Shown here piece by piece: positions 1 through 64,000 of a stretch of 64,000 nt of DNA (position 1 is the stretch's first letter; every line of letters begins with the position of its first letter). A model generated the notes under the pieces. The model made no database searches. It was not told where the DNA came from and worked only from the letters and a program-made list of their open reading frames with translations. Where the stretch lies: positions 1 to 64,000 of IMG/VR virus record IMGVR_UViG_2675903055_000001; one strand, 5' to 3'. The DNA is from a virus (lineage: Duplodnaviria; Caudoviricetes). A program made the position numbers and the translations under genes.

Positions 1-1398
1 CTACCCCGACTGCTGGTTGCCGCTCCGGCACGCCCGGCACTGCCGGTACCCGGTCCCCGGAGCGATGTAGGTGTTCTCCGGCGTGTACTCGTGCCCGTGG
101 CGGCAGTGCGTCCGCAGCCGCCGCCCGCCCGGCGACCACTCCACCCGCTCCGCCTCCGCCCGCGGCGCCGGCAGATCCGGCACCCGCGGCTCCGGACTCG
201 CCAGCAGCTCCCCCAGCTTCTCCGACCCGGCCCGAAGGCTGTGCGGGTCGGAGTGCACATACACCCGCTTCGTGAAGCTGAGGTCGGTGTGCCCGGCCCA
301 CGCGGAGACGACGGTGTCGGGCACACCGTTGTTAGCCATCCACGTGAGGACCGCGTGCCGCGCGTCGTACAACCGCACCCGCCGGACGCCGACGGCATCC
401 ATGAGCTTGTACGCCTCGCGCCGCAGCTTGTCCGTCTTGAACGGCCGCCCCAGCTCGTCGACGAGGACATAGCCGCTGTCCTCGTAGCCGCGGCCCGCGT
501 ACTCCTTCTCCTGCGCCTGGACCGTGCGAGCCACGGTCAGAGCCCGGAGCACGGGGATGGGCAGGGGCAGGGCCCGTCGACCGGCATCGGTCTTGGCTGT
601 CTTCTCGACAACCTTGTTGCGCTTGCCCTTCTCCAGGGTGCGGTCGTAGACGATGGTGCGGGTGTTGTCGCCGACGGCGATCGTGCCCGCGTCGAGGTCG
701 ACGTCCTCTGCCCAGCGGGTGCCGCACACCTCGGCCGGGCGCTCCGCGATGAACGCCAGCATCATCGGGCCGCACAGCCGGTGGGTGACGATGCCCGCGA
801 GGAACTTCCTCACCTCGTCCTGATCCCACGGCGCGCCGCGGGTCTTGGCGACAGCCGCGGCCTTGCGCTGCGCCTCCCGGGACACCTTCACGTGCTCGGC
901 CACGTTCCGCACGACGATGCCGCGGCGCACGGCCAGAGTGAGGGCCGACCTCAGCCGGCCGAGGGACAGCCGTGCGGAGCGGACGCTCAGGCCGGTGCCC
1001 GGCGTGCCGCCGCGCTGCCTGCCCTCGGTGACCATCCAGTCGATGAACGCTTCGACGTCTTCCTCGGTGAGTTGCTGTACCCGCATGTGCCCGAGCCTGC
1101 GGCGGATGGGGCGGATGGCGTTGTCGTAGTTGGTGGCCGTTCCCTCCTCGACATCGCGGGTGGCGGTCTTGAGCCAGGTGTCGAGGAGTTCGTCGACGGT
1201 CATCTTCGAGGGGACGACGAGAGTGCCGGCGGTGCGCTGATGGACGATGCGGGCGCGCTCGGCGACGGCTTCGGCTTTCGTGTCCTTCGTGCCGGTGATC
1301 TGCTTGCGTTTTCCCTCCGGCGTTACTCCGGCGTCGACGACGAATCGCCAGCGGGTGCTGCCGTCGCGCAGGGTGATTTTCTTGATCGGGTCGGCCAT
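1..1398 (-). CDS. int: Tyrosine recombinase/integrase with C-terminal Cys/His zinc-finger-like extension
   Basis: N-terminal arm-binding-like region; catalytic-type motifs RLYDARH and AGH...TKRVY; tail [13 protein letters not shown]...RQCRAC. Confidence 0.92.
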
Positions 1399-6721: not shown

Positions 6722-7168
6722 CTAGTCATACCGCCCTTGCCTCCGTCCGAGCGCCGCTCTCTCCTCGGGGGTGAGGTAGGCGTCGCGCAGTTGGGCGCGC
6801 CACGTGAACCACTCCAGCCGGTACGCCGGCCGCACTGCAGGCAACTGGTAGGCGATCCGGGCTCCCCACGGCTGAGGAGGAACGCCCGACGGAAGCACAG
6901 GACCGAGCGGCTCGCCCTCGGCGTCGAAGCCGAACCCACTCTTGTTGTACAGCGGGTTCTCGGCCTGGATGGCACTCAGCTCGGCTTCCTCCGCCTCCGG
7001 CCGGGTGCCGTACCAGGTGAGGTGCTTATCGGTGACTTCTGGCCACCAGAGCATTTCCTTGCGGTGATCCTTCCACCGCTGTTTCGGAGCCCAGGTCACG
7101 CCGACGTACAGCAAGGTGCCTTCGGCGTCATACAGGCGGTACACGGCTGTCGCCCGGGTGTCATCCAC
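6722..7168 (-). CDS. GIY-YIG nuclease domain protein
   Basis: AVYRLYDAEGTLLYVGVT...QRWKDH...E...AI..ENPLYN. Confidence 0.85.
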   Translation of the reverse strand: MDDTRATAVYRLYDAEGTLLYVGVTWAPKQRWKDHRKEMLWWPEVTDKHLTWYGTRPEAEEAELSAIQAENPLYNKSGFGFDAEGEPLGPVLPSGVPPQPWGARIAYQLPAVRPAYRLEWFTWRAQLRDAYLTPEERAALGRRQGRYD

Positions 7169-11579: not shown

Positions 11580-13238
11580 TCAGGCGTGAACCCACGGCCA
11601 CGCGGCGGCCCGCCCCGACTCCAACAGCGGGATCATCCGGAACGCCTGATCCGTGAGCCCGCCAAACGTGTGCCGGCCCCTCCCACCCGACTGCGCATGC
11701 CCCACCCGGTAGCCAGCCAGATTCCACGTGTACATCGGCACCGACGACGGAACAGCCCGCATCACGTCGTCCGCGTCATGCCCCGCCTGCTCGTCCGTAA
11801 CGATCACAACCCTGTCGTGACCGGTGAACTCCTGACGGAGAGCCGCCGCTGTGTCGGTACCGCCCCCAAGGAACCAGCCACCGCCCTTCCACCGCTGCAC
11901 CGCCCGCAGCAGCGACTCACCCCTCTGCGCAGGGAACGCCTTCGTCCTCGCCCCCGGGCGGTCGTTCGTGTAGTAACGGGCCGACGAGAACGACACGACA
12001 TCCGCTCGCGCGCACCGCTGCCCCAACGCGATACCGAACAGGGCCGCAGCATCCCACCGCATCAGGCTGCCGTCCCGCGAGAACGGCTCGTTCATCGATG
12101 ACGAGGTGTCGACCAGGACCAGGGTGCGCCCTGCGAGCTGCGGGATGTTCGCGAGTGACGCGGACAGCGCCTTCTCCAGTGCGTAGCCCCAGCGCAGCGA
12201 CGGCGCCGCGTTGTACGCCGAGTAGAACCGCATCGGCAACTGACGTGAGCGTGCCACCTGCTCCGGGTCCGCGAGCTTCGCCGCGACCTGCTCCGCCGCC
12301 GCGTCGGACACGCCGGCCTCGTCGAAGTTGCGGAGGTTCCTGAGCAGCGCCATGTAGCCCATGGACGGGATGACCGCCTCCCACGCCTGCTTGTCCATCG
12401 GCCCCTGGAGCCAGCCGGCCAGCGCCTCCCACGTCATGCCAGCCTGCTGAAGGAGGTCGCCGTGGTTGGCGAGCACGTCCCTGCGCTGGTCAACTGGTGT
12501 GTACGTGAGCCGTTCACGCGCGAGCAGCATGGGGAGCCTGGCGGGGATCTCCTCGTCGCGCTTCATCCTGCGGTCGAGGGCGTGCTTGAACAGGTCGCCC
12601 TGCCACGCCTTGTTATCCGCCGGGCTGGGGTGGACGAGGTTGAGGACGTCGCCGAACCGGTACCCCTTGGATTCGGTGTCGTACTTGAGAAGGCTCCGCT
12701 CGTTGTACAGCCGCTGCACGGCGTCCGCGACCCCTCGCTTGATGGGCTTGGGCAGGCGTCGGCCGTAGCGGCTGGCCCAGTAGCCGAGCATTTCGCCGGG
12801 CTCGTCGGCGCGCTGGAGGACGGAGTCGATGACGCGCCGGTTCCAGCCTCCGCCGCTGGCCGATGCCGTCACCGTGTCGGGCGCCAGGTCACCGGCGGCC
12901 GTGGCGTCGAGGCGGGCCTTGACGAACTCGGCGGCGCCGACCAGCGCGGCGGTGCGCATGTTGGCGTCGCTGCGGAGCCAGCCCAGCAGTTCGACGCACC
13001 AGGCTGGGTCTTCGACGGCGAGCTGCCGTATGAGCTGGGTGTAGCGGTCGTCGCGCTGTCCGCCAGTCTCGTAGAACGTGTCCTGGCCGACCATGTTGGC
13101 GACGGCGAGGAGGAACAGCTCGGACTTGGTGTCGCGGAGGTAGCCGTGGCTGCCCTCGGCGGTGAGCGCACGCTCCCCGGTCGATGTCACGGGCGAGCTG
13201 GCAGACGGGCGGGCTGTGCGGGTGTTGAAGCGGGCCAC
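11580..13238 (-). CDS. rsr: Ro60/Rsr ortholog (TROVE + vWA domain RNA-binding protein)
   Basis: ELFLLAV, MRTAALV, SMGYMALLRNLRN TROVE motifs; vWA MIDAS LVLVDTSSSM, GGTD and IVTDEQ. Confidence 0.92.
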   Translation of the reverse strand: MARFNTRTARPSASSPVTSTGERALTAEGSHGYLRDTKSELFLLAVANMVGQDTFYETGGQRDDRYTQLIRQLAVEDPAWCVELLGWLRSDANMRTAALVGAAEFVKARLDATAAGDLAPDTVTASASGGGWNRRVIDSVLQRADEPGEMLGYWASRYGRRLPKPIKRGVADAVQRLYNERSLLKYDTESKGYRFGDVLNLVHPSPADNKAWQGDLFKHALDRRMKRDEEIPARLPMLLARERLTYTPVDQRRDVLANHGDLLQQAGMTWEALAGWLQGPMDKQAWEAVIPSMGYMALLRNLRNFDEAGVSDAAAEQVAAKLADPEQVARSRQLPMRFYSAYNAAPSLRWGYALEKALSASLANIPQLAGRTLVLVDTSSSMNEPFSRDGSLMRWDAAALFGIALGQRCARADVVSFSSARYYTNDRPGARTKAFPAQRGESLLRAVQRWKGGGWFLGGGTDTAAALRQEFTGHDRVVIVTDEQAGHDADDVMRAVPSSVPMYTWNLAGYRVGHAQSGGRGRHTFGGLTDQAFRMIPLLESGRAAAWPWVHA

Positions 13239-13518: not shown

Positions 13519-13652
13519 GCCCAGAGATCGAAGTCGGTGTCGGAGACGTGGTGCTCTACCTGTTGAGCTACGGACGCCGTGGCGTCCGACGGGACTCGAA
13601 CCCGCAACCGCCCCATTAACAGTGGAAGTATCCGATGCCTGCGCACCTGGGC
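13519..13652 (-). ncRNA. Y RNA-like (YrlA-type) unit with circularly permuted tRNA-Asn(GUU)-like domain
   Basis: GCCCAG/CUGGGC terminal stem; UUCCA-CUGUUAA-UGGGG, T arm GCGGG-UUCGAGU-CCCGU, acceptor hairpin CGGACGC-CACG-GCGUCCG, D arm GCUC-AACAGGUA-GAGC. Confidence 0.8.
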
Positions 13653-31657: not shown

Positions 31658-32692
31658 TCACACGAGACCTTCGACAGCACCGCACCAGGCCGTCAGATCG
31701 GCTGCAGGACCCAACTCGCGCGAGCGAGCCCGAGCCCTCTTGGACGCCAACCGGTACTCGGCCGGATCACCGAGCAGCTTGCCCAACACCGCTTCGTAGC
31801 CGTCCACGTCGAAGCGGTCCACGAACACGCCCGCCTCGCCGAGCGACTCGCACAGGCCCGGAGTCGGATGTGCCACCACAGGGATGCCAGACGCCAACGC
31901 CTCAACGCCAGCCCGTCCCCACGACTCGTAGACCGACGGCATCAGCAGCACCTTCGTGCGGGCATACACCCGCTCCCGCATCTCGGAGCCGTCCACGTGC
32001 TCGACGACCTCGACATTCGGCAGGTCCGGAAGGATCTGCTCGCCGTAGGCACCGCGCACGGCCAGGAACTGCTGATCCGGCATGCGCCGGGCCAGCGCCG
32101 CGAGTGTCGTCCCGCCCTTTTCCGCATTGCAGTTGATCAGCGTGATGGCCTTGCCGGGCTTCGTCGCATACTCGTCGGCGAACACCGGAGGCCGCACGAT
32201 CAGCGACCGCTCCGGCCGGACAGCCTTCGGATACTCGGCGAAGAACAACTCCGCCTCCGCCTCCATCCAGCGCGAGTTGTACACCGCCAGCGCCGTCTGC
32301 CCCGCCGCCGCATCCCGGAACGTGGGCCGGTGCGTGTTGTGACACACGACCACCATCGGCTTGCCGTAGCCGCGGGCCAGCGACGCCGTCGACGGAACGC
32401 ACTCCAGATGCGACAGCAGCACATCCGCCCGCCGCACAGCAGAAGGGAAATCCAGGCGCGCCTCCAGCGGCACGACGCGCACGCCCCGGTACTCGTAGAC
32501 CTCGTGTGCCTTCCCGTAACGGGACAACCACACCTCCACCTGATGCCCGCGCTCGACCAGCGGCCGCAGCATCGAGATCAGCATGTGCTCGGCGCCCGCG
32601 TTGTGCTCCGGTGGCGCGGCGTGCACGCGGGCGACGATGGACAGCGGCTTGGCTGCCCCGTCCGGCGCGGAAGCCGGGACAGCCCTGGCCAT
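31658..32692 (-). CDS. Glycosyltransferase family 4 (GT-B fold)
   Basis: NAGAEHML...PSVYESWGRAGVEALASGIPVV. Confidence 0.9.
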   Translation of the reverse strand: MARAVPASAPDGAAKPLSIVARVHAAPPEHNAGAEHMLISMLRPLVERGHQVEVWLSRYGKAHEVYEYRGVRVVPLEARLDFPSAVRRADVLLSHLECVPSTASLARGYGKPMVVVCHNTHRPTFRDAAAGQTALAVYNSRWMEAEAELFFAEYPKAVRPERSLIVRPPVFADEYATKPGKAITLINCNAEKGGTTLAALARRMPDQQFLAVRGAYGEQILPDLPNVEVVEHVDGSEMRERVYARTKVLLMPSVYESWGRAGVEALASGIPVVAHPTPGLCESLGEAGVFVDRFDVDGYEAVLGKLLGDPAEYRLASKRARARSRELGPAADLTAWCGAVEGLV

Positions 32693-33648
32693 CAGGAACC
32701 GCTCGGGGTGCCGGTGAACTTCACGAACGCCTGCGCGTCACCCATGACGAACCCGTAGTACGCCTCCGCCAGGAGCAGCACCAGGTTCTCCTGGAAGGCG
32801 GAGTGGACGCCGCCTTCCTCGTCCACGTAGGTGGCCTCGTTCGACACGCGCACGGTGATGTCCATGCCCACGCCGTAGGCGCACTGCGACCAGTCGCCGC
32901 CCAGCGCCCGCAGGCCGGAATCGACACTGGCGGACTGACGCCGCTGCTTCCCCGACACGCTCCGCGAGTAGGCCAGCGGCTCACCGATCAGCGTCCCCGC
33001 CGCCGCCATGTCCGTACCCGGCGTCTGCGTGTCCACCAGGATCGGCCGGCCGGTGGTGTCCGTGGCCAGCAGCAGCTTCGGCTTCAGCCGGTGATCCGCG
33101 ACGGTACCGGTGTAGTCCCAGTCCGCGTCGATGACCTCCTCCATGCCCGTCACCAGGTCGGCCCAGATGCCGCCGTTGCCCTGCGTCGCAGTGCCCAGCG
33201 TGACGCTGTTCGTCGTGGAGGCCAAGTACTCGGTGAACGGACCCGCAGCGCCCTTCATGGTCTTGCCGTGGATCGCCGCGTGGTCGAACGCGCGGGCGAA
33301 CGCGGTAGGCAGATCCTTCTGCAGTTGGCTGTAGAGACCCGCGGCGTTGGTGTTCGCGACCTCCATCGCCACCGGGATCAGCACCGCCAGCTTCTTCGCC
33401 TGCATCTGCTTCACGTCCACGCCACCGGTCGACAGGGGCTTCTTCGCCGCCTGCCCGACCCAGTCCGCGGTCGGCACGTCCATCGGGATCGGCACGGACG
33501 TGGTGGCGTCCAGCGCCAGCGGCGCCGGACGCGCCAGCGCCATGATCGCCGACTGCTCCACCGACTTCTCGAAGATCGGAGCGGTGATCGTGCGCGGCAG
33601 AAGCGCACCATCGATGCTGGACAGGGTGATAGGGGCCGTAGCCGCCAT
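32692..33648 (-). CDS. Major capsid protein (HK97 fold)
   Basis: KKLAVLIPV..E, AFARAFD, GDWSQ, FQENLV. Confidence 0.92.
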   Translation of the reverse strand: MAATAPITLSSIDGALLPRTITAPIFEKSVEQSAIMALARPAPLALDATTSVPIPMDVPTADWVGQAAKKPLSTGGVDVKQMQAKKLAVLIPVAMEVANTNAAGLYSQLQKDLPTAFARAFDHAAIHGKTMKGAAGPFTEYLASTTNSVTLGTATQGNGGIWADLVTGMEEVIDADWDYTGTVADHRLKPKLLLATDTTGRPILVDTQTPGTDMAAAGTLIGEPLAYSRSVSGKQRRQSASVDSGLRALGGDWSQCAYGVGMDITVRVSNEATYVDEEGGVHSAFQENLVLLLAEAYYGFVMGDAQAFVKFTGTPSGS

Positions 33649-34393: not shown

Positions 34394-35200
34394 TTACTGG
34401 ACGGGCGACGCATCGTGCTCGGCGATCGCCCGACGGAACAGGCGAAGCTGATCGCCCGGATGGCCTTGCGCGTACTCCCGGTAGATGCGGTCCCACCGAG
34501 CCGCCTGCGGAGACAACTCGAACCGCTGCCCCCGGAAGACACTGATGATCTGACAGGAGCAGTGGTCGTGATACTTCGCCACCGACGCATCGCCGGAAAA
34601 CCGGTCGTTGGCATCCCGACCGGCCGTGCCTGCGGACTTGTAGACCATCCCGCGTGAGGCCATCAAGCGGCAGAACGCGCAAGCGCCAAGCGCTGCGGCC
34701 CGCGCGTAACCAACAGCCTCACGGTCCCGCTGCACAGCCTGCCGCGTCGTCTGGCGTCCCTGATCCAAGACGAGCTTTTCCACCACCGCAGCCGTCTTCT
34801 TCTCCGCCGCAGCCAGCCTCACCTCGACTGGCTGTGCCTGCGCCGCCGTGGTACGCGGATCGTCCGGGTCCCGGGGCCACAGGTCCTTGGTGGCCCATCG
34901 CAGTGACGCCTGCGTCTGCTCCTGCGGCGGGCTGTCCGCGAGCGGCACGGTGAACGCACTGGTGACGTCGGCCGCGGCTCGCTGCGCCTCGTACACCTCG
35001 GCAGCCAACTGCGCCGCCAAGTCGCCGTACTGGCGCACCACCGCGTCGACCGCCTCCATCCACGGCGGCAACGTCGCACCCATCCGCGCGGGCACGAGGA
35101 GTCTCCGCAGCCTGCCCAGATCCCTGCGCAGCAGCCGCACCAGCCCGGCAGCAGCCTGACGGTGACGGGCGCCGTCCGCGTCAGAAACTCTCCTCGCCAC
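34394..35200 (-). CDS. Capsid maturation/minor head (MuF-like) protein
   Basis: ACAFCRLMASRG...YHDHCSC. Confidence 0.8.
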   Translation of the reverse strand: MARRVSDADGARHRQAAAGLVRLLRRDLGRLRRLLVPARMGATLPPWMEAVDAVVRQYGDLAAQLAAEVYEAQRAAADVTSAFTVPLADSPPQEQTQASLRWATKDLWPRDPDDPRTTAAQAQPVEVRLAAAEKKTAAVVEKLVLDQGRQTTRQAVQRDREAVGYARAAALGACAFCRLMASRGMVYKSAGTAGRDANDRFSGDASVAKYHDHCSCQIISVFRGQRFELSPQAARWDRIYREYAQGHPGDQLRLFRRAIAEHDASPVQ

Positions 35201-36653
35201 CGGTCACCTCCGGCAGACCTGCGGCCTCCCCCGTCGAGGCCGAACTGTCCTCCCCGCCGCCGAGCCCAGTGAGCCGATCCAGCAACTGGGCCCCGGCAAA
35301 GCGGCGCCGGTCGGCTGCGACACGCTGACGCTGCCCCTCCGACAGGCCCGCCAGCTCCAGCGTCACGTCGGAGTCGGCCGGCAGAATCCCGGCCTGCACC
35401 AACTTGACCGCAGCATCGGTCTGCGCCGCCACGGTCGGTGTCGCTGGGTTCCGCCACACACACTCGATACGCCGCTCACGGGGCGGCGCCTCCCCATCGC
35501 GCACCCACATGGCCAGACGCATCACATCCGCCCACACCGCGCCGAAGCGGCGAATCCGACGCTCGGCCTTCTTCACCAGCATCGCCTCGCTGCTGCGGAT
35601 CGCATCCGCAGAAGCCGGGTTGTCCGAGGTGTAGCCGAGCATGTGCGGCGGTAGCCCCAACTGAGTCGCCATGATCCGCGCATACAAGTCGATGATCTTC
35701 GTCATGCCAGTCGGGTCATGCGCCGCGAACTGGCCCACAGTCGGAAGGTTTCCCTCCTCGTCCCGCTCCAAGGCCAGGACCCGACCGATGTACGTCTCCC
35801 ACGCAGACTTCGCGTTGCCCTCCGCGTCCTGGAACGCAGACTCGGACGCGCCGAGGATGTAGCGCTGCGGAGCACCGAAGAACTCCGCCGCCACCTCCAT
35901 GCCCATCAACCGGCGGCACGCAGCATCCGTGATCGACATGACCTCCGGGGTGATCTCACTACGCCCCACCCGGTCCGCGGTCCGCTGACGATTCGCCATC
36001 CGCAACACCGGAGGCAACCCCAGACCGTGCATGTCCCGGTCGACGACCTCCCAGCCGCCACTGGGCGAAGGCACCGCATACACCGTCTGCTCAGGCCCGT
36101 ACAGCACCGTCAACGGCTCATCGCTGCGCGCCGGATCCAACCGATCCACGGTGCACTCCCGCAGCGCCGACGTCACCATCCGCAGACGGGCATCCCACTC
36201 CACCGTCATATCCAACGGAGACTCGACCGTGATCACAGGCGGGCAATCCCCACCCGGGCCGCACTCACCCGACCCGACCGCGATGTACTCCCGCCCATAG
36301 GTCAGCGCGTCCAAGTGCGCCAGACTCGCCTCGTCGAACAGATCGTTCGCGTCGGCGATCTCCCGCAGACCCTCCGCGTCCCCGCCGTCAGCCCAGCGGA
36401 ACGCCTCCAAGTCGAGACGCTGCTCCAGCGCCTCCACACCGATCCGCGGCCATCCGATGACCGTGTGCAGGCCCTTCAACTGCGGCGGGATGGAGATCCC
36501 CAGGTCCCGCACCAGTTGCTCACCGTTGAAGTAGGCGTCCAACAGTTGCAGATGCCACCGTGCCGACAGCAGGTCCTGCCGGAGAAACTGGATCTGCGCC
36601 AGCTCGTCCTCCGACAACGACACCAGCGGAAGCTCAGGGATCGTAGCGGCCAC
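35181..36653 (-). CDS. Portal protein (SPP1 gp6-like)
   Basis: GWPRIGVEALEQRL, AEFFGAPQRYILG, NPASADAI, WRNPATPT. Confidence 0.92.
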   Translation of the reverse strand: MAATIPELPLVSLSEDELAQIQFLRQDLLSARWHLQLLDAYFNGEQLVRDLGISIPPQLKGLHTVIGWPRIGVEALEQRLDLEAFRWADGGDAEGLREIADANDLFDEASLAHLDALTYGREYIAVGSGECGPGGDCPPVITVESPLDMTVEWDARLRMVTSALRECTVDRLDPARSDEPLTVLYGPEQTVYAVPSPSGGWEVVDRDMHGLGLPPVLRMANRQRTADRVGRSEITPEVMSITDAACRRLMGMEVAAEFFGAPQRYILGASESAFQDAEGNAKSAWETYIGRVLALERDEEGNLPTVGQFAAHDPTGMTKIIDLYARIMATQLGLPPHMLGYTSDNPASADAIRSSEAMLVKKAERRIRRFGAVWADVMRLAMWVRDGEAPPRERRIECVWRNPATPTVAAQTDAAVKLVQAGILPADSDVTLELAGLSEGQRQRVAADRRRFAGAQLLDRLTGLGGGEDSSASTGEAAGLPEVTGGEESF

Positions 36654-36666
36654 AGGTCACCGCCCT

Positions 36667-38406
36667 TCACCTGAGTACGACGACCCGGCCCTTACCGGCC
36701 GACCGCTTCTTGGCCCACGCGGGCGAGTTCATCAACATGCGGCGCAGCATCCGCGCCCCGATCGCACACACCGCGAGATCGATCTTCCGGGCGGACTCGC
36801 GGTGCTCCTTACCGATCGTGTAGCCCCACCTGTTCGTCCGCCGCCGCGCATTCGCGATGTGCTGCCGCAGCACCCGGTGCCCGTCGTGAGGCACCTGCCG
36901 CTCCAGCGCATCCCGGTAGAACCGGTCAACCGCCTCCGTGAACAGCGGCTGATGCTTCGGATCACGCATGTCCCACAGCACCGCGTGCTGCCGCGTACCC
37001 GAGACCACAGCCTTCAGCTTCAGGCGCTTCCCGTACCGCTGTGCCCACGAGTCGATGTAACCGTCCCAGTACCGCTCGCCGTCCGCGTCATCGTGGCCGG
37101 CTCCCGGGTCGGCGAAGAACGCGAGCGGCCGGTAGCGGGCGAAGGTCTGCTCGACCACGCCGTCGACCTCATCCCGCGGCACCCGCCACGGCCGATCATC
37201 CGGCCAGCCCGGCGGCTTCTGCCACACGCCCAGAGCAGTCACGAAACCGTCCGACACCCGACACGCCACCAACCCGGTGGCGTCATCGCTCTTCGACCCG
37301 TCGAAAAACAAGACGATCTCGTCTCGCTCGGCCAGCTCCACGCCGTCGACCTGGCAGGCATCCCACTCGTAGCGGGCCATGTACGCGTCGTCCGCGGCGA
37401 CGATCTGGTTGAACCAGAACCGGCGACTACGCGACGGCGGATTCCGCACATCCAGGATCGACGCCTTCAGCCGGTCGATGTCCAGCCACACGGAATCCCC
37501 ACGCACAGCCTTCAGCGTCGGGACGATCCACTCCTCCGTCAGCTTCGCCTCAGCCGGCGCCTCCAACGAGTCGTAGAACAGACCCGTATCGACCGACCGC
37601 CCGGACTCCGCCGACTCGAACGCCTCCCGAGTGCGCTCCGCCACCGAGTCCTCACCCGGCTCGTAAGCGTTCGTGAGAGCCAGGGTTCGCGACATTCCGT
37701 CCGCGCTCTTGGTCGAGTTGCGCTCGATGACCGCAGCCATCTCGTGCCCCTGATTCGAGTCCACCCAGTGGTGCGTCTCATTCAGCAGGACGAACGTCGG
37801 CCGACCGCCCTCCATCGCTCGCGGCGAAGACGTGACCGCCTCAACTCGAGCGCGTCCCTTGTCCGCATAGATGATCTCCTTGCCGAGATCGATGCGGTAC
37901 TCCTCGATCGCCCGCTTGCTGAACATCCCCGGGAAGAGCGTCATCGTCGAGCGCGTCTGGTCCTGCGACACCGCCGCGATCTGCACCCAGGCCGCCGGAT
38001 GCTGCATTCCGATCGGCTGCCCCGGCGGGATCCCCCACTCGTCTCCCTCATCCGCCACCTGGCCCGACGGCCGGCACGGGCCGACAAACTCGAACCCCGA
38101 CCACGAAGCCCCCAAGGGATCCTTGCCATGACCCTTGAGGCGTTGGATCACGCCGTCCCGGTACTGGAACCGCAACGTCACCGGGTCCAGCGCGTACCAC
38201 CACAGCGTCAGCCGGGCCTGCTCCGCCGTATACCGCCACGGCGCCCCGACATGGTGCTGGAGGTACGTAGCCGTCCACGCCAGCGCATGCCAGCCCAGCG
38301 TGAACTCCGGCAGCACGAACCGGCCGTCCCGGCCACGCCGCCAAGTCGGCCCGAGCGTGAACGGGGTGACGACCTCGGGGACGGCTTCAACTTCCGCGTT
38401 CATCAC
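36667..38406 (-). CDS. Terminase large subunit
   Basis: QRLKGHGKDP Walker A, LLNETHH, FFDGSKSDDATGL, KIDLAV. Confidence 0.93.
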   Translation of the reverse strand: MMNAEVEAVPEVVTPFTLGPTWRRGRDGRFVLPEFTLGWHALAWTATYLQHHVGAPWRYTAEQARLTLWWYALDPVTLRFQYRDGVIQRLKGHGKDPLGASWSGFEFVGPCRPSGQVADEGDEWGIPPGQPIGMQHPAAWVQIAAVSQDQTRSTMTLFPGMFSKRAIEEYRIDLGKEIIYADKGRARVEAVTSSPRAMEGGRPTFVLLNETHHWVDSNQGHEMAAVIERNSTKSADGMSRTLALTNAYEPGEDSVAERTREAFESAESGRSVDTGLFYDSLEAPAEAKLTEEWIVPTLKAVRGDSVWLDIDRLKASILDVRNPPSRSRRFWFNQIVAADDAYMARYEWDACQVDGVELAERDEIVLFFDGSKSDDATGLVACRVSDGFVTALGVWQKPPGWPDDRPWRVPRDEVDGVVEQTFARYRPLAFFADPGAGHDDADGERYWDGYIDSWAQRYGKRLKLKAVVSGTRQHAVLWDMRDPKHQPLFTEAVDRFYRDALERQVPHDGHRVLRQHIANARRRTNRWGYTIGKEHRESARKIDLAVCAIGARMLRRMLMNSPAWAKKRSAGKGRVVVLR

Positions 38407-59737: not shown

Positions 59738-60274
59738 ATGAGCGCGTCAAGCGACTCCGCCGCCAAGCCCCGCCGTGCCGCTGTGTACCGCCTGTGGGAC
59801 TCCGAGGGCAACCTCTTGTACATCGGCTCGGCCTACGACCCGGACCACCGTTGCCAGGCCCACAGGCAACAACCTTGGTGGCCGGCAGTCACACGCCGCA
59901 CCGAAGAGTGGCACGCGGGGCGCCGCAACGCATACATCGCTGAGCTCGAAGCCATAGCGAAAGAACGTCCCACGCACAACTTGATGGGCACGCTGGAGTA
60001 CCAGACGCCCAGCACCGAAAAGGTTCAGCGCCGGAACGAGCTCGCACCTCTCCGAGGGCGTCTCACCCGAGAAGCTGACCTGCTGGCAGCGAGGGTGACT
60101 CGCGAGTCGCGAGCCGCGGGCGCCTCCAGTTACGAAGCAGAGCGGGCTGGCAAGCTGGCAGCGATCGACTTTCTGGAAGACACGGGCCTATTCGATGGAG
60201 CGGTCAAATGGCGGCGAAGGCAGGTGGCTTACGATGCGCGCCGCCACGAAGAGGAGCAGCGTGATGACAGCTGA
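59738..60274 (+). CDS. GIY-YIG nuclease domain protein (paralog of 6722-7168)
   Basis: AVYRLWDSEGNLLYIGSA...H..QPWW...E..AI..E.P.HN. Confidence 0.85.
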   Translation: MSASSDSAAKPRRAAVYRLWDSEGNLLYIGSAYDPDHRCQAHRQQPWWPAVTRRTEEWHAGRRNAYIAELEAIAKERPTHNLMGTLEYQTPSTEKVQRRNELAPLRGRLTREADLLAARVTRESRAAGASSYEAERAGKLAAIDFLEDTGLFDGAVKWRRRQVAYDARRHEEEQRDDS

Positions 60275-61833: not shown

Positions 61834-62225
61834 GGCTGCTCCTGGTTGATGGTGCGGGCGACGGCGAGGGCGTGGGGGCCGCCACCGCCGCGGTGGCCCC
61901 ACTCGGCGAGGGTGTACGCCTCTTGCTGGGCCGCGTGCTCCAGCCAGTCGGCGAGGGCGAGGCCGATGCCGGGGTGCATGGCGGCGATGTAGGCGGCGTC
62001 GGCCCACACGTTGCGGGTCTCGTCCCACGATTCCTGGCTCATCGTCGGCAACCAGGCGCGGAGTTCGGTGTCGTTGCGCTCGCCGGACAGGACGGTCGCG
62101 GTGTGCCCGTACTGGCCGAGGTGGGTGTCGTGCTGGCGCCACGGGCCGGGGGTGGCGGCGGTGGCGAGCGCCCGCAGGCGTGCGGCGGCGGTGCGGAGTT
62201 CGTCGGCGGGGCTGGGGTCGGTCAC
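61830..62225 (-). CDS. Hypothetical protein (ATPGPW, ead/DUF6221-related motif)
   Basis: ELRTAAARLRALATAATPGPW...YIAAMHP. Confidence 0.65.
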   Translation of the reverse strand: MTDPSPADELRTAAARLRALATAATPGPWRQHDTHLGQYGHTATVLSGERNDTELRAWLPTMSQESWDETRNVWADAAYIAAMHPGIGLALADWLEHAAQQEAYTLAEWGHRGGGGPHALAVARTINQEQP

Positions 62226-63202
62226 GGCTGCTCCTCGATGCCGTGGCAGTCGCATCCGCAGGGGACACCGGTGAACTTGTTGTTGCGGCGACACCTGTCG
62301 TGGAGGTGGTCGGCCGCCGCCCGGAGTTCCTCGGCGTGTTCGGTGTGGACGTCGACTACGCGCTCGCACTCGCGGGCCGTCTCACATGCGGTGCTGGTGT
62401 ACGGCGGCACGTCGATCAGGCGGAGCAGGTGGTCGGGGAGCTGCTCGCGGGTGCTGCCGGGCGGGGGCGGGGTGAAGTCGTCGGTCACGGTCAGCTTCTT
62501 GGCGGGCTGGATGACGATGTCTTTGCCGAGGAGGCGGAAGACCTCGCGGATGGTGTCCAGGCTGAGCCCGTTGATCAGTTCGCCGATGGGCGTGGTGAGG
62601 TCGATGGGTACCCACGGGGCGGGTGGGGCTGCGTCGCGCCGCGTGCAGCGGCCGGCTCGGACGTGGCCGTCGGCGCACTCCTCGCCGCAGTGGGCGGCGG
62701 TTCGGGCGCACGGGGTCTGGCGGCAGGAGCAGTTGGCGCAGTGCTCGCAGAACGGCTGGTTCCGGTAGTTGTGGTAGACGATCTCTTCCGAGTCGCAGCC
62801 GACGCAGCGTTCGGCTAGCTGCCAGCGCGTGCCGTGGTCGTTGGCGTGGCTGCCGTAGTGGCCGGGGTGCAGCACGCACTCCTCACGAATGGCGCCGAAC
62901 GGGTCAGTGGGCGACAGATCGCCGCAGCGCTCGGGCGGTGGGTGCTGTTCGCGGGTGTGGCGTTTCAGTTCGGCGTGGCTGGTGGTGCGGAAGTCGGGGC
63001 AGTCCCAGCAGCCGTAGTTGACGGGTGTGGTCATGGTGGTCTCCGGGGTGGTGCGGAAGGTGTCGGGGGCGACAGTCGGTGTGAGGGTTTCGAGAGCCCG
63101 GTCGAGGCTGGCGAGCGTCTCGCGCTGCCGGGCGGGGTCGGTGAGTACTCGGCGGGCAAAGGCCCATCCGCAGCAGTCGGGGCTGGGGTTGGGGTTGGTC
63201 AT
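62222..63202 (-). CDS. Multi-zinc-finger hypothetical protein
   Basis: CxxC..H..H, CxxC repeats; RBS AAGGGA. Confidence 0.6.
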   Translation of the reverse strand: MTNPNPSPDCCGWAFARRVLTDPARQRETLASLDRALETLTPTVAPDTFRTTPETTMTTPVNYGCWDCPDFRTTSHAELKRHTREQHPPPERCGDLSPTDPFGAIREECVLHPGHYGSHANDHGTRWQLAERCVGCDSEEIVYHNYRNQPFCEHCANCSCRQTPCARTAAHCGEECADGHVRAGRCTRRDAAPPAPWVPIDLTTPIGELINGLSLDTIREVFRLLGKDIVIQPAKKLTVTDDFTPPPPGSTREQLPDHLLRLIDVPPYTSTACETARECERVVDVHTEHAEELRAAADHLHDRCRRNNKFTGVPCGCDCHGIEEQP

Positions 63203-63230
63203 CAGGTTCCCTTCAGCGTCGTGTGGGTTG

Positions 63231-63304
63231 TGCCCGAGGCCGGATTCGAACCGGCACTGAGCCGCTTTTAAGGCGGGCGCGTCTACCTGTTGCGCGACTC
63301 GGGC
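63231..63304 (-). tRNA. tRNA with UAA anticodon (Leu, bldA-type decoding), short variable loop
   Basis: GCCCGAG/CUCGGGC acceptor, A73, T arm GCCGG-UUCGAAU-CCGGC, anticodon loop CUUAAAA; no encoded CCA; C-C mismatch at top of anticodon stem. Confidence 0.8.
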
Positions 63305-63312
63305 GAAGGCGG

Positions 63313-64000
63313 TCAGGAGAAGAGGGCGAGTTGTTCGCGCTCGGCGCCCTGCGGAAGCACGACGGGGACCGGGTCCGCCTCCGCGCCCGGCCCGCTGCCG
63401 TCGTCGGCTGGGGTGTCGGTGCCGCCGTCCGTGCCGAGGTTGACGATGCGGGCCTGGGCAGGGCGCAGCCGCGCGTACTCGGCGCGGCTGACCTTCCCCG
63501 CGAGGAGACTGTCGCCGACGCTGATGCGAGGCATCGGCCGGTGCGGTATCGCGTCCAGGCGCAGCGGCCCGGGTAGGGCGCCGGCCTCGTGGAGTAGGTG
63601 GGCGAGGTAGACGGTGACGCGGAGTCGGCACACGGCCTCGGTGACCGGGTCGAGTTCCATGCCGTCGACGCCGGCGAGGATGCGGCGGGCCGCCGCGGCC
63701 GGGGGTATGGGTGTCCAGCCGGTGACGCCGTCCATGTGCATCTGCCGCGGGGCGAGTTGGCCGGTGGTGTACAGCTCCCAGAGCATGTCGATGGCGCGGA
63801 TGAGGAAGTGGCCGGTTCCGCAGGTGGGGTCGATCAGGCGCAGCGTCTCGTTGCGGAACTCCGCGGCGGCGGGGATGAGGGTGCGGTCGAGGATGCCGTC
63901 GGCGAGCCACCAGGGGGATTGGGCGAGGGCGTGGGCGAGGCGGCGTTCGTCGGTGACGAGTTGGAGGAGGTCGCCGAGGATCCAGCCGGTGATCGTGCCC
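63313..64000 (-). CDS. N6-adenine DNA methyltransferase-like protein (5' end outside window); no NPPY-type motif downstream of motif I
   Basis: Open frame from window edge: ...LIDPTCGTGHFL...VDGMELD...VGDSL. Confidence 0.75.
   Translation of the reverse strand, partial: GTITGWILGDLLQLVTDERRLAHALAQSPWWLADGILDRTLIPAAAEFRNETLRLIDPTCGTGHFLIRAIDMLWELYTTGQLAPRQMHMDGVTGWTPIPPAAAARRILAGVDGMELDPVTEAVCRLRVTVYLAHLLHEAGALPGPLRLDAIPHRPMPRISVGDSLLAGKVSRAEYARLRPAQARIVNLGTDGGTDTPADDGSGPGAEADPVPVVLPQGAEREQLALFS

Follow-up and report, generated by a model that had tools for sequence, protein, structure and literature searches.

We found that a Streptomyces prophage carries a tRNA gene with the UAA anticodon of bldA and a short variable loop in place of the long variable arm, and we put at roughly 75% the probability that it encodes a functional phage-borne type I (short variable loop) tRNA-Leu(UAA), that is, a tRNA that lost the arm, kept its leucine core and, charged with leucine, decodes UUA. 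Most likely it is an ordinary “spare” tRNA of a phage, and not a recoding device or a new mechanism. The bldA tRNA and the rare TTA codon together are a textbook case of translational control of development and antibiotic production. Below we describe the prophage and the tRNA gene, the family to which the tRNA belongs, its expected charging by the host leucyl-tRNA synthetase (LeuRS) and the demand for its codon.

The prophage and its landmarks

The window, by which we mean the whole 64,000-nt stretch of DNA that was analysed (C31:219941-283940 of genome G000), holds only the left 64 kb of a longer integrated element, and the tRNA gene lies ~63 kb from attL. The last 46 nt at the 3′ end of the host tRNA-Pro(GGG) gene, which ends 110 nt before the window starts, are repeated exactly to form the direct repeats attL and attR (Table 1). 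This exact repeat brackets the element at both ends, and the element is a prophage of ~89 kb that is integrated at tRNA-Pro(GGG) of a Streptomyces host.

Table 1. Features of the prophage; positions are window coordinates unless a contig is named.
Feature	Position	Strand	Remarks
attL	C31:219784-219829		just left of the window; 46-bp direct repeat of the tRNA-Pro(GGG) 3′ end
Tyrosine integrase	1-1398	-	
TTA-bearing gene, 131 aa	3524-3919	-	TTA is codon 35; no family match
Small paralogous gene	6722-7144	-	
Ro60/TROVE-type protein gene	11580-13238	-	
YrlA match	13550-13612	-	sub-threshold
Tape-measure-like gene, 1661 aa	23250-28235	-	
Major capsid	32692-33648	-	
SPP1-type portal	35181-36623	-	
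Large terminase	36667-38406	-	
TTA-bearing gene, 59 aa	51170-51349	-	TTA is codon 3, start may be miscalled; no family match
Small paralogous gene	59783-60274	+	
Gene downstream of the tRNA, 326 aa	62222-63202	-	no family match
Type I tRNA-Leu(UAA), 74 nt	63231-63304	-	found by ARAGORN, Rfam and fold
Gene upstream of the tRNA, 371 aa	63313-64000 in the window, on to 64428	-	weak MmeI_Mtase match
LuxR/GerE-type regulator, 149 aa	64425-64874		upstream of the 371-aa gene
Small paralogous gene	74373-74828	+	
attR	88905-88950 (C31:308845)		right of the window; 46-bp direct repeat

Several other features of the prophage are recorded here in their own right. Over its last ~40 residues, at the C-terminus, the open frame of the integrase matches HNH endonuclease PHROGs (phrog_1492, 1.6e-12); such an extension is unusual for a tyrosine integrase. 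The prophage also encodes a Ro60/TROVE-type RNA-binding protein (Pfam TROVE, 9e-16; phrog_850, 1e-49), and just upstream of its gene, on the same strand and within a 961-nt stretch without a called gene, there is a match to the Y-RNA-like family YrlA (RF02553) that stays below threshold (40.3 bits, E 1.4e-6; gathering score 69); gene and match together look like a phage Rsr/Y-RNA module. Three small paralogous genes match the same places in several related loci (L048, L109 and L130), and are possibly repeated regulators.

Structure of the tRNA gene

ARAGORN reported a single tRNA in the 64-kb window (63230-63304, minus strand, anticodon taa), and the Rfam tRNA model RF00005 matched positions 63231-63304 of the same strand over its full length, scoring 53.9 bits (E 8e-9; gathering score 29). 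The single-sequence fold was a cloverleaf of -33 kcal/mol. On the minus strand, the acceptor stem GCCCGAG/CUCGGGC is followed by U8, and the D-arm GCGC-AACAGGUAG-ACGC, which is of the leucine type, by G26. The anticodon loop CUUAAAA is carried by a stem of four standard pairs, with a C.C mismatch between positions 27 and 43 (C27.C43); the variable loop UCAGU has 5 nt, includes U48 and forms no hairpin; the T-arm reads GCCGG-UUCGAAU-CCGGC, and the discriminator is A73.

The initial annotation had read from this locus a 74-nt cloverleaf with the loop CUUAAAA, discriminator A, a GCCCG acceptor start and a 5-nt variable region, and it had placed the gene on a prophage; ARAGORN, RF00005 and the fold confirmed the former, and the 46-bp att repeat together with the integrase, large terminase, portal and major capsid genes confirmed the latter. 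The combination at the centre of that annotation, a bldA-type anticodon without a long arm on a prophage, also held, and the host has a separate canonical bldA on contig C9. Absent from it were the minus-strand orientation, the C27.C43 mismatch and the fact that the gene does not encode its CCA end. Only 11 of the 61 host tRNA genes encode CCA, so the missing CCA is normal here.

Compared with bldA, the window tRNA has the same anticodon and codon, a similar acceptor start (GCCCG; GCCCGGA in host bldA) and a nearly identical T-arm, and presumably the same LeuRS serves both. The host bldA differs in being 87 nt long, with a long variable arm (in canonical bldA a hairpin of ~17 nt), an encoded CCA and a conserved chromosomal locus (C9:95639-95725; canonical bldA is present once per genome), whereas the window tRNA has a 5-nt loop, lies on a prophage and is of a short form that we found in only 6 of 400 other genomes of the genus. 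Nor is it an ortholog of bldA, its nearest long-armed relatives being tRNAs of a distinct mobile-element type (L043 and L081, described below). The host has no type I tRNA-Leu(CAA): its CAA tRNA measures 87 nt, and all its other leucine tRNAs are long-armed.

Gene neighbourhood

The tRNA gene lies within an extended run of minus-strand phage genes of early type, all in the same direction. Its 5′ end follows the stop codon of the 371-aa upstream gene by 8 nt, and the ATG of the 326-aa downstream gene, on the same strand, follows its 3′ end by 28 nt; given this spacing, co-transcription and processing is the simplest reading. A scan of positions 62000-64000 for promoters and terminators returned no site, using a sigma-70 consensus that is weak for Streptomyces and has little power in G+C-rich DNA.

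The 371-aa gene contains a SAM-methyltransferase-like motif (DPTCGTGHFL), and its match to MmeI_Mtase is weak (E 0.04). Homologs of this gene adjoin a family tRNA in L040 (87%), L068 (49%) and L041/L063 (27%). Among the remaining neighbours of the tRNA are a gene without recognised function and an Ead/Ea22-like gene. Pfam and PHROG searches with both flanking genes and both TTA-bearing genes yielded no usable function, and no synthetase domain was found among the neighbours of the tRNA. The same gene-tRNA-gene order is present in L040, a 78-kb IMG/VR viral genome that is the closest relative among the matches listed, and whose flanking genes share 84-91% amino-acid identity with those of the prophage.

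A family of short-armed tRNA-Leu(UAA)

When we compared the window tRNA with the tRNAs of its host, its D-arm layout equalled that of class II leucine tRNAs and its T-arm was nearly that of bldA, while its anticodon stem-loop was identical to that of host tRNA-Phe(GAA) except at position 34. BLAST retrieved full-length short-loop UAA homologs from two Streptomyces plasmids (NZ_CP108868 and NZ_CP134214) and from three other genomes of the genus, and a scan with the core of the tRNA, from D-arm to anticodon arm, matched 13 IMG/VR viral contigs and at least 120 genome contigs, 80 of which were taken. BLAST and core scan together yielded at least 38 distinct short sequences of 73-76 nt (counted up to position 73), which come from viral contigs as well as from Streptomyces and Kitasatospora; the short family, of at least 36 distinct sequences, is carried by predicted viral contigs, plasmids and genomes. 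When 50,697 cultured-phage records were searched with blastn, there was one weak unrelated match and no family member at that sensitivity; the sources of the family are prophage-type IMG/VR contigs, plasmids and genomes, and not sequenced Streptomyces phage isolates at the blastn sensitivity used.

Two carriers deserve separate mention. One of the plasmid records (L002; NZ_CP134214.1, S. janthinus, annotated as a linear “plasmid” of 90,031 bp) has its family tRNA at 58-132, 58 nt from the end of the record; its size is near that of the prophage, and it may be a phage or phage-plasmid genome. The other is a 254-kb Streptomyces contig (L005; G089:C2), which may be a plasmid and which carries an 84-nt, bldA-like long-armed tRNA-Leu(UAA) at 277-360 as well as a short-armed UAA tRNA at 1501-1576, so that two extra UUA decoders lie 1.2 kb apart.

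Among the matches listed from the core scan were two 84-nt long-armed tRNA-Leu(UAA), one on a viral contig (L043) and one from S. desertarenae (L081). The acceptor, D, anticodon and T arms of both match the short consensus, and outside the variable region they differ from it essentially at position 13 only, which is C in all short-armed members and G in these long-armed siblings as well as in class II tRNAs of Gaiellales. The change to C13 that accompanies the loss of the arm is possibly an adjustment of tertiary structure. Chromosomal class II tRNA-Leu(UAA) of Gaiellales, moreover, have the same D and anticodon arms as the short family. Since the long-armed siblings differ from the short consensus almost only in the arm, these comparisons indicate that the short family arose from a class II tRNA-Leu(UAA) by loss of the arm, with its leucine-type core kept.

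We also considered an origin from tRNA-Phe and discarded it, because genuine class II tRNA-Leu(UAA) have this anticodon arm too and the D-arm is of the leucine type.

The likeness of the anticodon stem-loop to tRNA-Phe(GAA) also bears on a proposal of the initial annotation, that the tRNA might mis-decode UUA by inserting some residue in place of leucine. There is a precedent for such an arrangement in the same genera, the tRNAProX/ProRSx mistranslation pairs of Streptomyces and Kitasatospora, in which a proline tRNA body bears an AUU or AGU anticodon next to a ProRSx gene, so that anticodon and body are possibly at odds (Schuntermann et al., 2023; PMC10404621). We nevertheless regard deliberate mis-decoding as very improbable, given the leucine-type body of the window tRNA and the lack of a synthetase domain among its neighbours. 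In addition, long-armed leucine siblings exist, the same anticodon arm is found in the ordinary class II tRNA-Leu(UAA) of Gaiellales, and the anticodon is invariant in the family; the only ArgRS-family gene of the host is on contig C14 and its only ProRS on contig C20, while the prophage is on C31. The proposal is thus poorly supported, lacking among other things a synthetase-like partner nearby. Two specific candidates were rejected along with it: an Arg-derived tRNA with an ArgRS-like partner, since the only ArgRS-family gene is on C14 and the body is of the leucine type, and a tRNAProX/ProRSx pair, since there is no proline body, no AUU or AGU anticodon and no adjacent ProRSx, the one ProRS of the host genome being on another contig.

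Conservation of the family

The family alignment was built from 36 distinct short sequences. We excluded L068 (Wenjunlia) for its aberrant 3′ half and L104, from a betaproteobacterial MAG, for its different acceptor stem. In this alignment, 99.9% of the pair cells were standard pairs, and eight pairs showed compensatory changes. These eight all lie in stems that the search pattern had left free, namely the acceptor and T stems. Not one of 500 shuffled controls reached any of the measures, and sliding the pairing partners destroyed the signal. Because the search pattern fixed the D and anticodon stems in most members, the invariance of these two stems carries no weight; one member found with a looser pattern (G245) has compensatory changes in the anticodon stem as well. 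U8, A14, G18 and G19 are invariant across the family, and the T-loop is UUCGAAU. This covariation points to a short family that is conserved under selection.

The anticodon is equally constant. All homologs found by a BLAST search that was independent of the anticodon had UAA, and a short-loop pattern open to either UAA or CAA matched in 6 of 400 other genomes of the genus, in each case with UAA. The initial annotation had named an anticodon not conserved in homologs as evidence against its reading; that every homolog has UAA favours a decoding function. We then built a covariance model of the short family and searched it against 151 genomes of the genus. Its top tier, at 94-100 bits, came from four genomes including the host of the prophage, all with UAA; no match fell between 76 and 94 bits in these 151 genomes, and a second tier at 67-76 bits contained only type I tRNA-Leu(CAA) of 74-76 nt with the loops ACAGC, CCAGC or ACAGU. 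Generic tRNAs start at ~65 bits.

These data speak to whether the gene could be a decaying relic, i.e., a damaged copy of a leucine tRNA without function, as the deletion of the arm, the C27.C43 mismatch and the absence of an encoded CCA might suggest. We judge this to be exceedingly improbable: the family is conserved with compensatory changes and the position of the gene is syntenic in the related phage L040, the 27-43 mismatch is present in the long-armed siblings too, and a missing CCA is the rule in this host.

Predicted leucine charging by the host LeuRS

The initial annotation had set the missing arm against the premise that leucine tRNAs are normally long-armed. Taken as a requirement, this premise is outdated, and Streptomyces is an established exception to it: the one LeuRS of S. 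coelicolor (ScoLeuRS) leucylates the naturally occurring type I (short-loop) tRNA-Leu(CAA) with a kcat/Km of 6.25, compared with 14.2 for the bldA tRNA, and when the bldA tRNA was fitted with a 5-nt loop, 14% of its kcat/Km remained (Fan et al., 2019, NAR 47:6369; PMC6614811). According to the same study, the minimum for charging is 5 loop nucleotides including nucleotide 48, U8:A14 is required, A73 is dispensable and the elbow pairs matter, and the ability to charge type I tRNA-Leu resides in the leucine-specific domain together with a Leu-Gly linker that precedes the KMSKS loop (PMC6614811). Some pairs of LeuRS and tRNA fail, in that neither E. coli LeuRS nor S. purpurogeneiscleroticus LeuRS is able to charge type I tRNA-Leu and ScoLeuRS does not charge human mitochondrial type I tRNA-Leu(UUR) (PMC6614811), so not every leucine-like tRNA of type I can be assumed to be charged.

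The window tRNA has the features named above, namely a loop of at least 5 nt with nucleotide 48 (UCAGU, with U48), U8:A14 and the elbow nucleotides G18, G19, U54, U55, C56 and A58, and it shares with all family members the leucine anticodon UAA. Its host encodes a single LeuRS, of the long form, in an open frame of 995 aa, for which the likely starts give 957-978 aa, with LLG directly before KMGKS. Likened by description only, this enzyme fits ScoLeuRS (967 aa; L732, G733) as characterized by Fan et al. (2019; PMC6614811). From these features, we infer that the host LeuRS would leucylate the window tRNA.

The closest known counterpart in this respect is the type I tRNA-Leu(CAA) of S. coelicolor. 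It has a 5-nt loop (ACAGC, compared with UCAGU here), U8:A14, G18G19 and a standard T-loop, it belongs to the next-best class in our covariance-model search (67-76 bits), some members of which share the T-arm of the window tRNA, and it combines a leucine anticodon with experimentally shown leucylation by the single Streptomyces LeuRS (PMC6614811). It differs in its anticodon, CAA, and in having a class I D-arm (GCCC-AGCGGUAG-AGGC), in contrast to the leucine class II D-arm of the window tRNA. Furthermore, it is chromosomal and the main reader of UUG where it is present, whereas the family described here resides on prophages and plasmids and duplicates the codon of bldA.

TTA codon demand

The initial annotation had proposed a count of TTA codons in the phage genes. 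With genes called by third-position G+C bias over the whole genome, the 154 genes of the prophage contained 2 TTA codons, a rate of 0.076 per 1000 (the two genes are listed in Table 1), and the 6081 genes of the host contained 97, a rate of 0.048 per 1000 (about 94 genes carry TTA). The rates did not differ significantly (p = 0.36), and hence TTA is not enriched in the prophage. TTG was enriched 2.4-fold in the prophage, as were all A/T-richer codons. In the flanks of 39 family members, TTA reached 0.131 per 1000 codons, with 12 codons observed versus 4.4 expected (2.7-fold, p = 0.002 per codon), and the share of genes with TTA was not higher (1.9% vs 1.5%).

Phage tRNAs are usually explained by a phage that uses the cognate codon more than its host does. 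Like other phage tRNAs for codons rare in the host, the window tRNA is found in a phage genome, is co-oriented with phage genes and reads the rarest sense codon of its host; unlike them, it is accompanied by no significantly higher use of its codon in the prophage, and around its relatives by a weakly higher one. We therefore rejected codon demand as a sufficient explanation. As TTA is not enriched in the prophage and is very rare around the relatives, demand does not obviously explain why the gene has been retained.

The low TTA demand leaves room for a role other than decoding, such as that of a decoy or replacement which counters a tRNA-cleaving host defence, or some other form of tRNA mimicry. 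Phage tRNAs have been proposed to replace host tRNAs that are cut by anticodon nucleases, and the altered shape of the window tRNA could let it escape an enzyme that recognises class II leucine tRNAs. What the family strictly keeps, however, is UAA in the context of U33 and A37 together with the tertiary nucleotides of a translating tRNA, which is more than a decoy needs, and we know of no nuclease in Streptomyces that targets tRNA-Leu(UAA). A role outside decoding consequently strikes us as highly unlikely, and the decoy that the initial annotation had put forward finds little support next to an invariant anticodon, a leucine-type body and long-armed leucine siblings.

A further reading, the first of those that the initial annotation proposed, concerns the host, in which ~97 TTA codons in ~94 genes depend on one bldA gene. 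If the tRNA were made from the resident prophage, it would act as a mobile second UUA decoder that is independent of bldA and loosens the bldA/TTA checkpoint on development and antibiotic genes, a form of lysogenic conversion. The tRNA looks chargeable with leucine and has the anticodon for the bldA codon, members of its family occur repeatedly in plasmids and temperate elements, which persist in cells, and complementation of a bldA mutant by engineered tRNAs has been demonstrated (Fan et al., 2019; PMC6614811). The gene, however, is embedded in an early-type phage block and has no promoter-like site of its own, as far as a sigma-70 scan, weak for Streptomyces, can tell. Gene blocks of this kind tend to stay silent in lysogens. 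Since the gene seems to belong to a lytic early operon, we rate expression in the lysogen, and with it a loosened checkpoint, as unlikely. A bypass of bldA in the lysogen would be mechanistically plausible and compatible with the spare-tRNA reading, as an added consequence of it.

Discussion

Our preferred reading remains that of a leucine-charged spare tRNA of the phage. We suggest that the tRNA would be transcribed together with the flanking early genes, excised by the tRNA-processing enzymes of the host, completed by the host CCA-adding enzyme and charged with leucine by the Streptomyces-type LeuRS of the host. The charged tRNA would then read UUA, and probably UUG by wobble. In S. coelicolor, the bldA tRNA is reported to accumulate late in development. 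The window tRNA would make the phage self-sufficient in a decoder for which the host has one gene only, bldA. Insurance would be the most parsimonious explanation of the benefit: as phage or plasmid genes drift toward A/T-richer codons, a private copy would end their reliance on the developmentally regulated bldA. Both the expression of the tRNA and its benefit to the phage are inferred here.

A natural UAA anticodon with a short variable loop is also found in animal mitochondrial tRNA-Leu(UUR), which is charged by a LeuRS of bacterial type. Those tRNAs are organellar, A/U-rich and structurally fragile, and they have the anticodon and the short loop in common with the family described here but no evolutionary link to it. 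Within Streptomyces, a short-loop tRNA-Leu that is charged by LeuRS is a structural type that has already been published for the CAA isoacceptor (PMC6614811). The mobile-element UAA family is a distinct lineage, with the class II D-arm of leucine tRNAs and an origin in long-armed tRNA-Leu(UAA). The literature that we searched describes neither a short-armed tRNA-Leu(UAA) on a phage or plasmid nor a second bldA, which is not proof of absence.

A second leucine tRNA that reads UUA, borne on temperate phages and plasmids, offers a simple and testable route to bldA bypass in some strains. It could explain differences between strains in their dependence on bldA, and it might serve as a tool for expressing gene clusters that contain TTA. 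Should the tRNA be expressed in lysogens, acquisition of such a prophage or plasmid, carried by ~1.5% of the Streptomyces species genomes searched, would rewire the bldA/TTA checkpoint; TTA genes such as adpA and pathway regulators, for instance, might be translated earlier or without bldA. The main value of the short UAA family lies in the ready-made test of bldA bypass that it provides.
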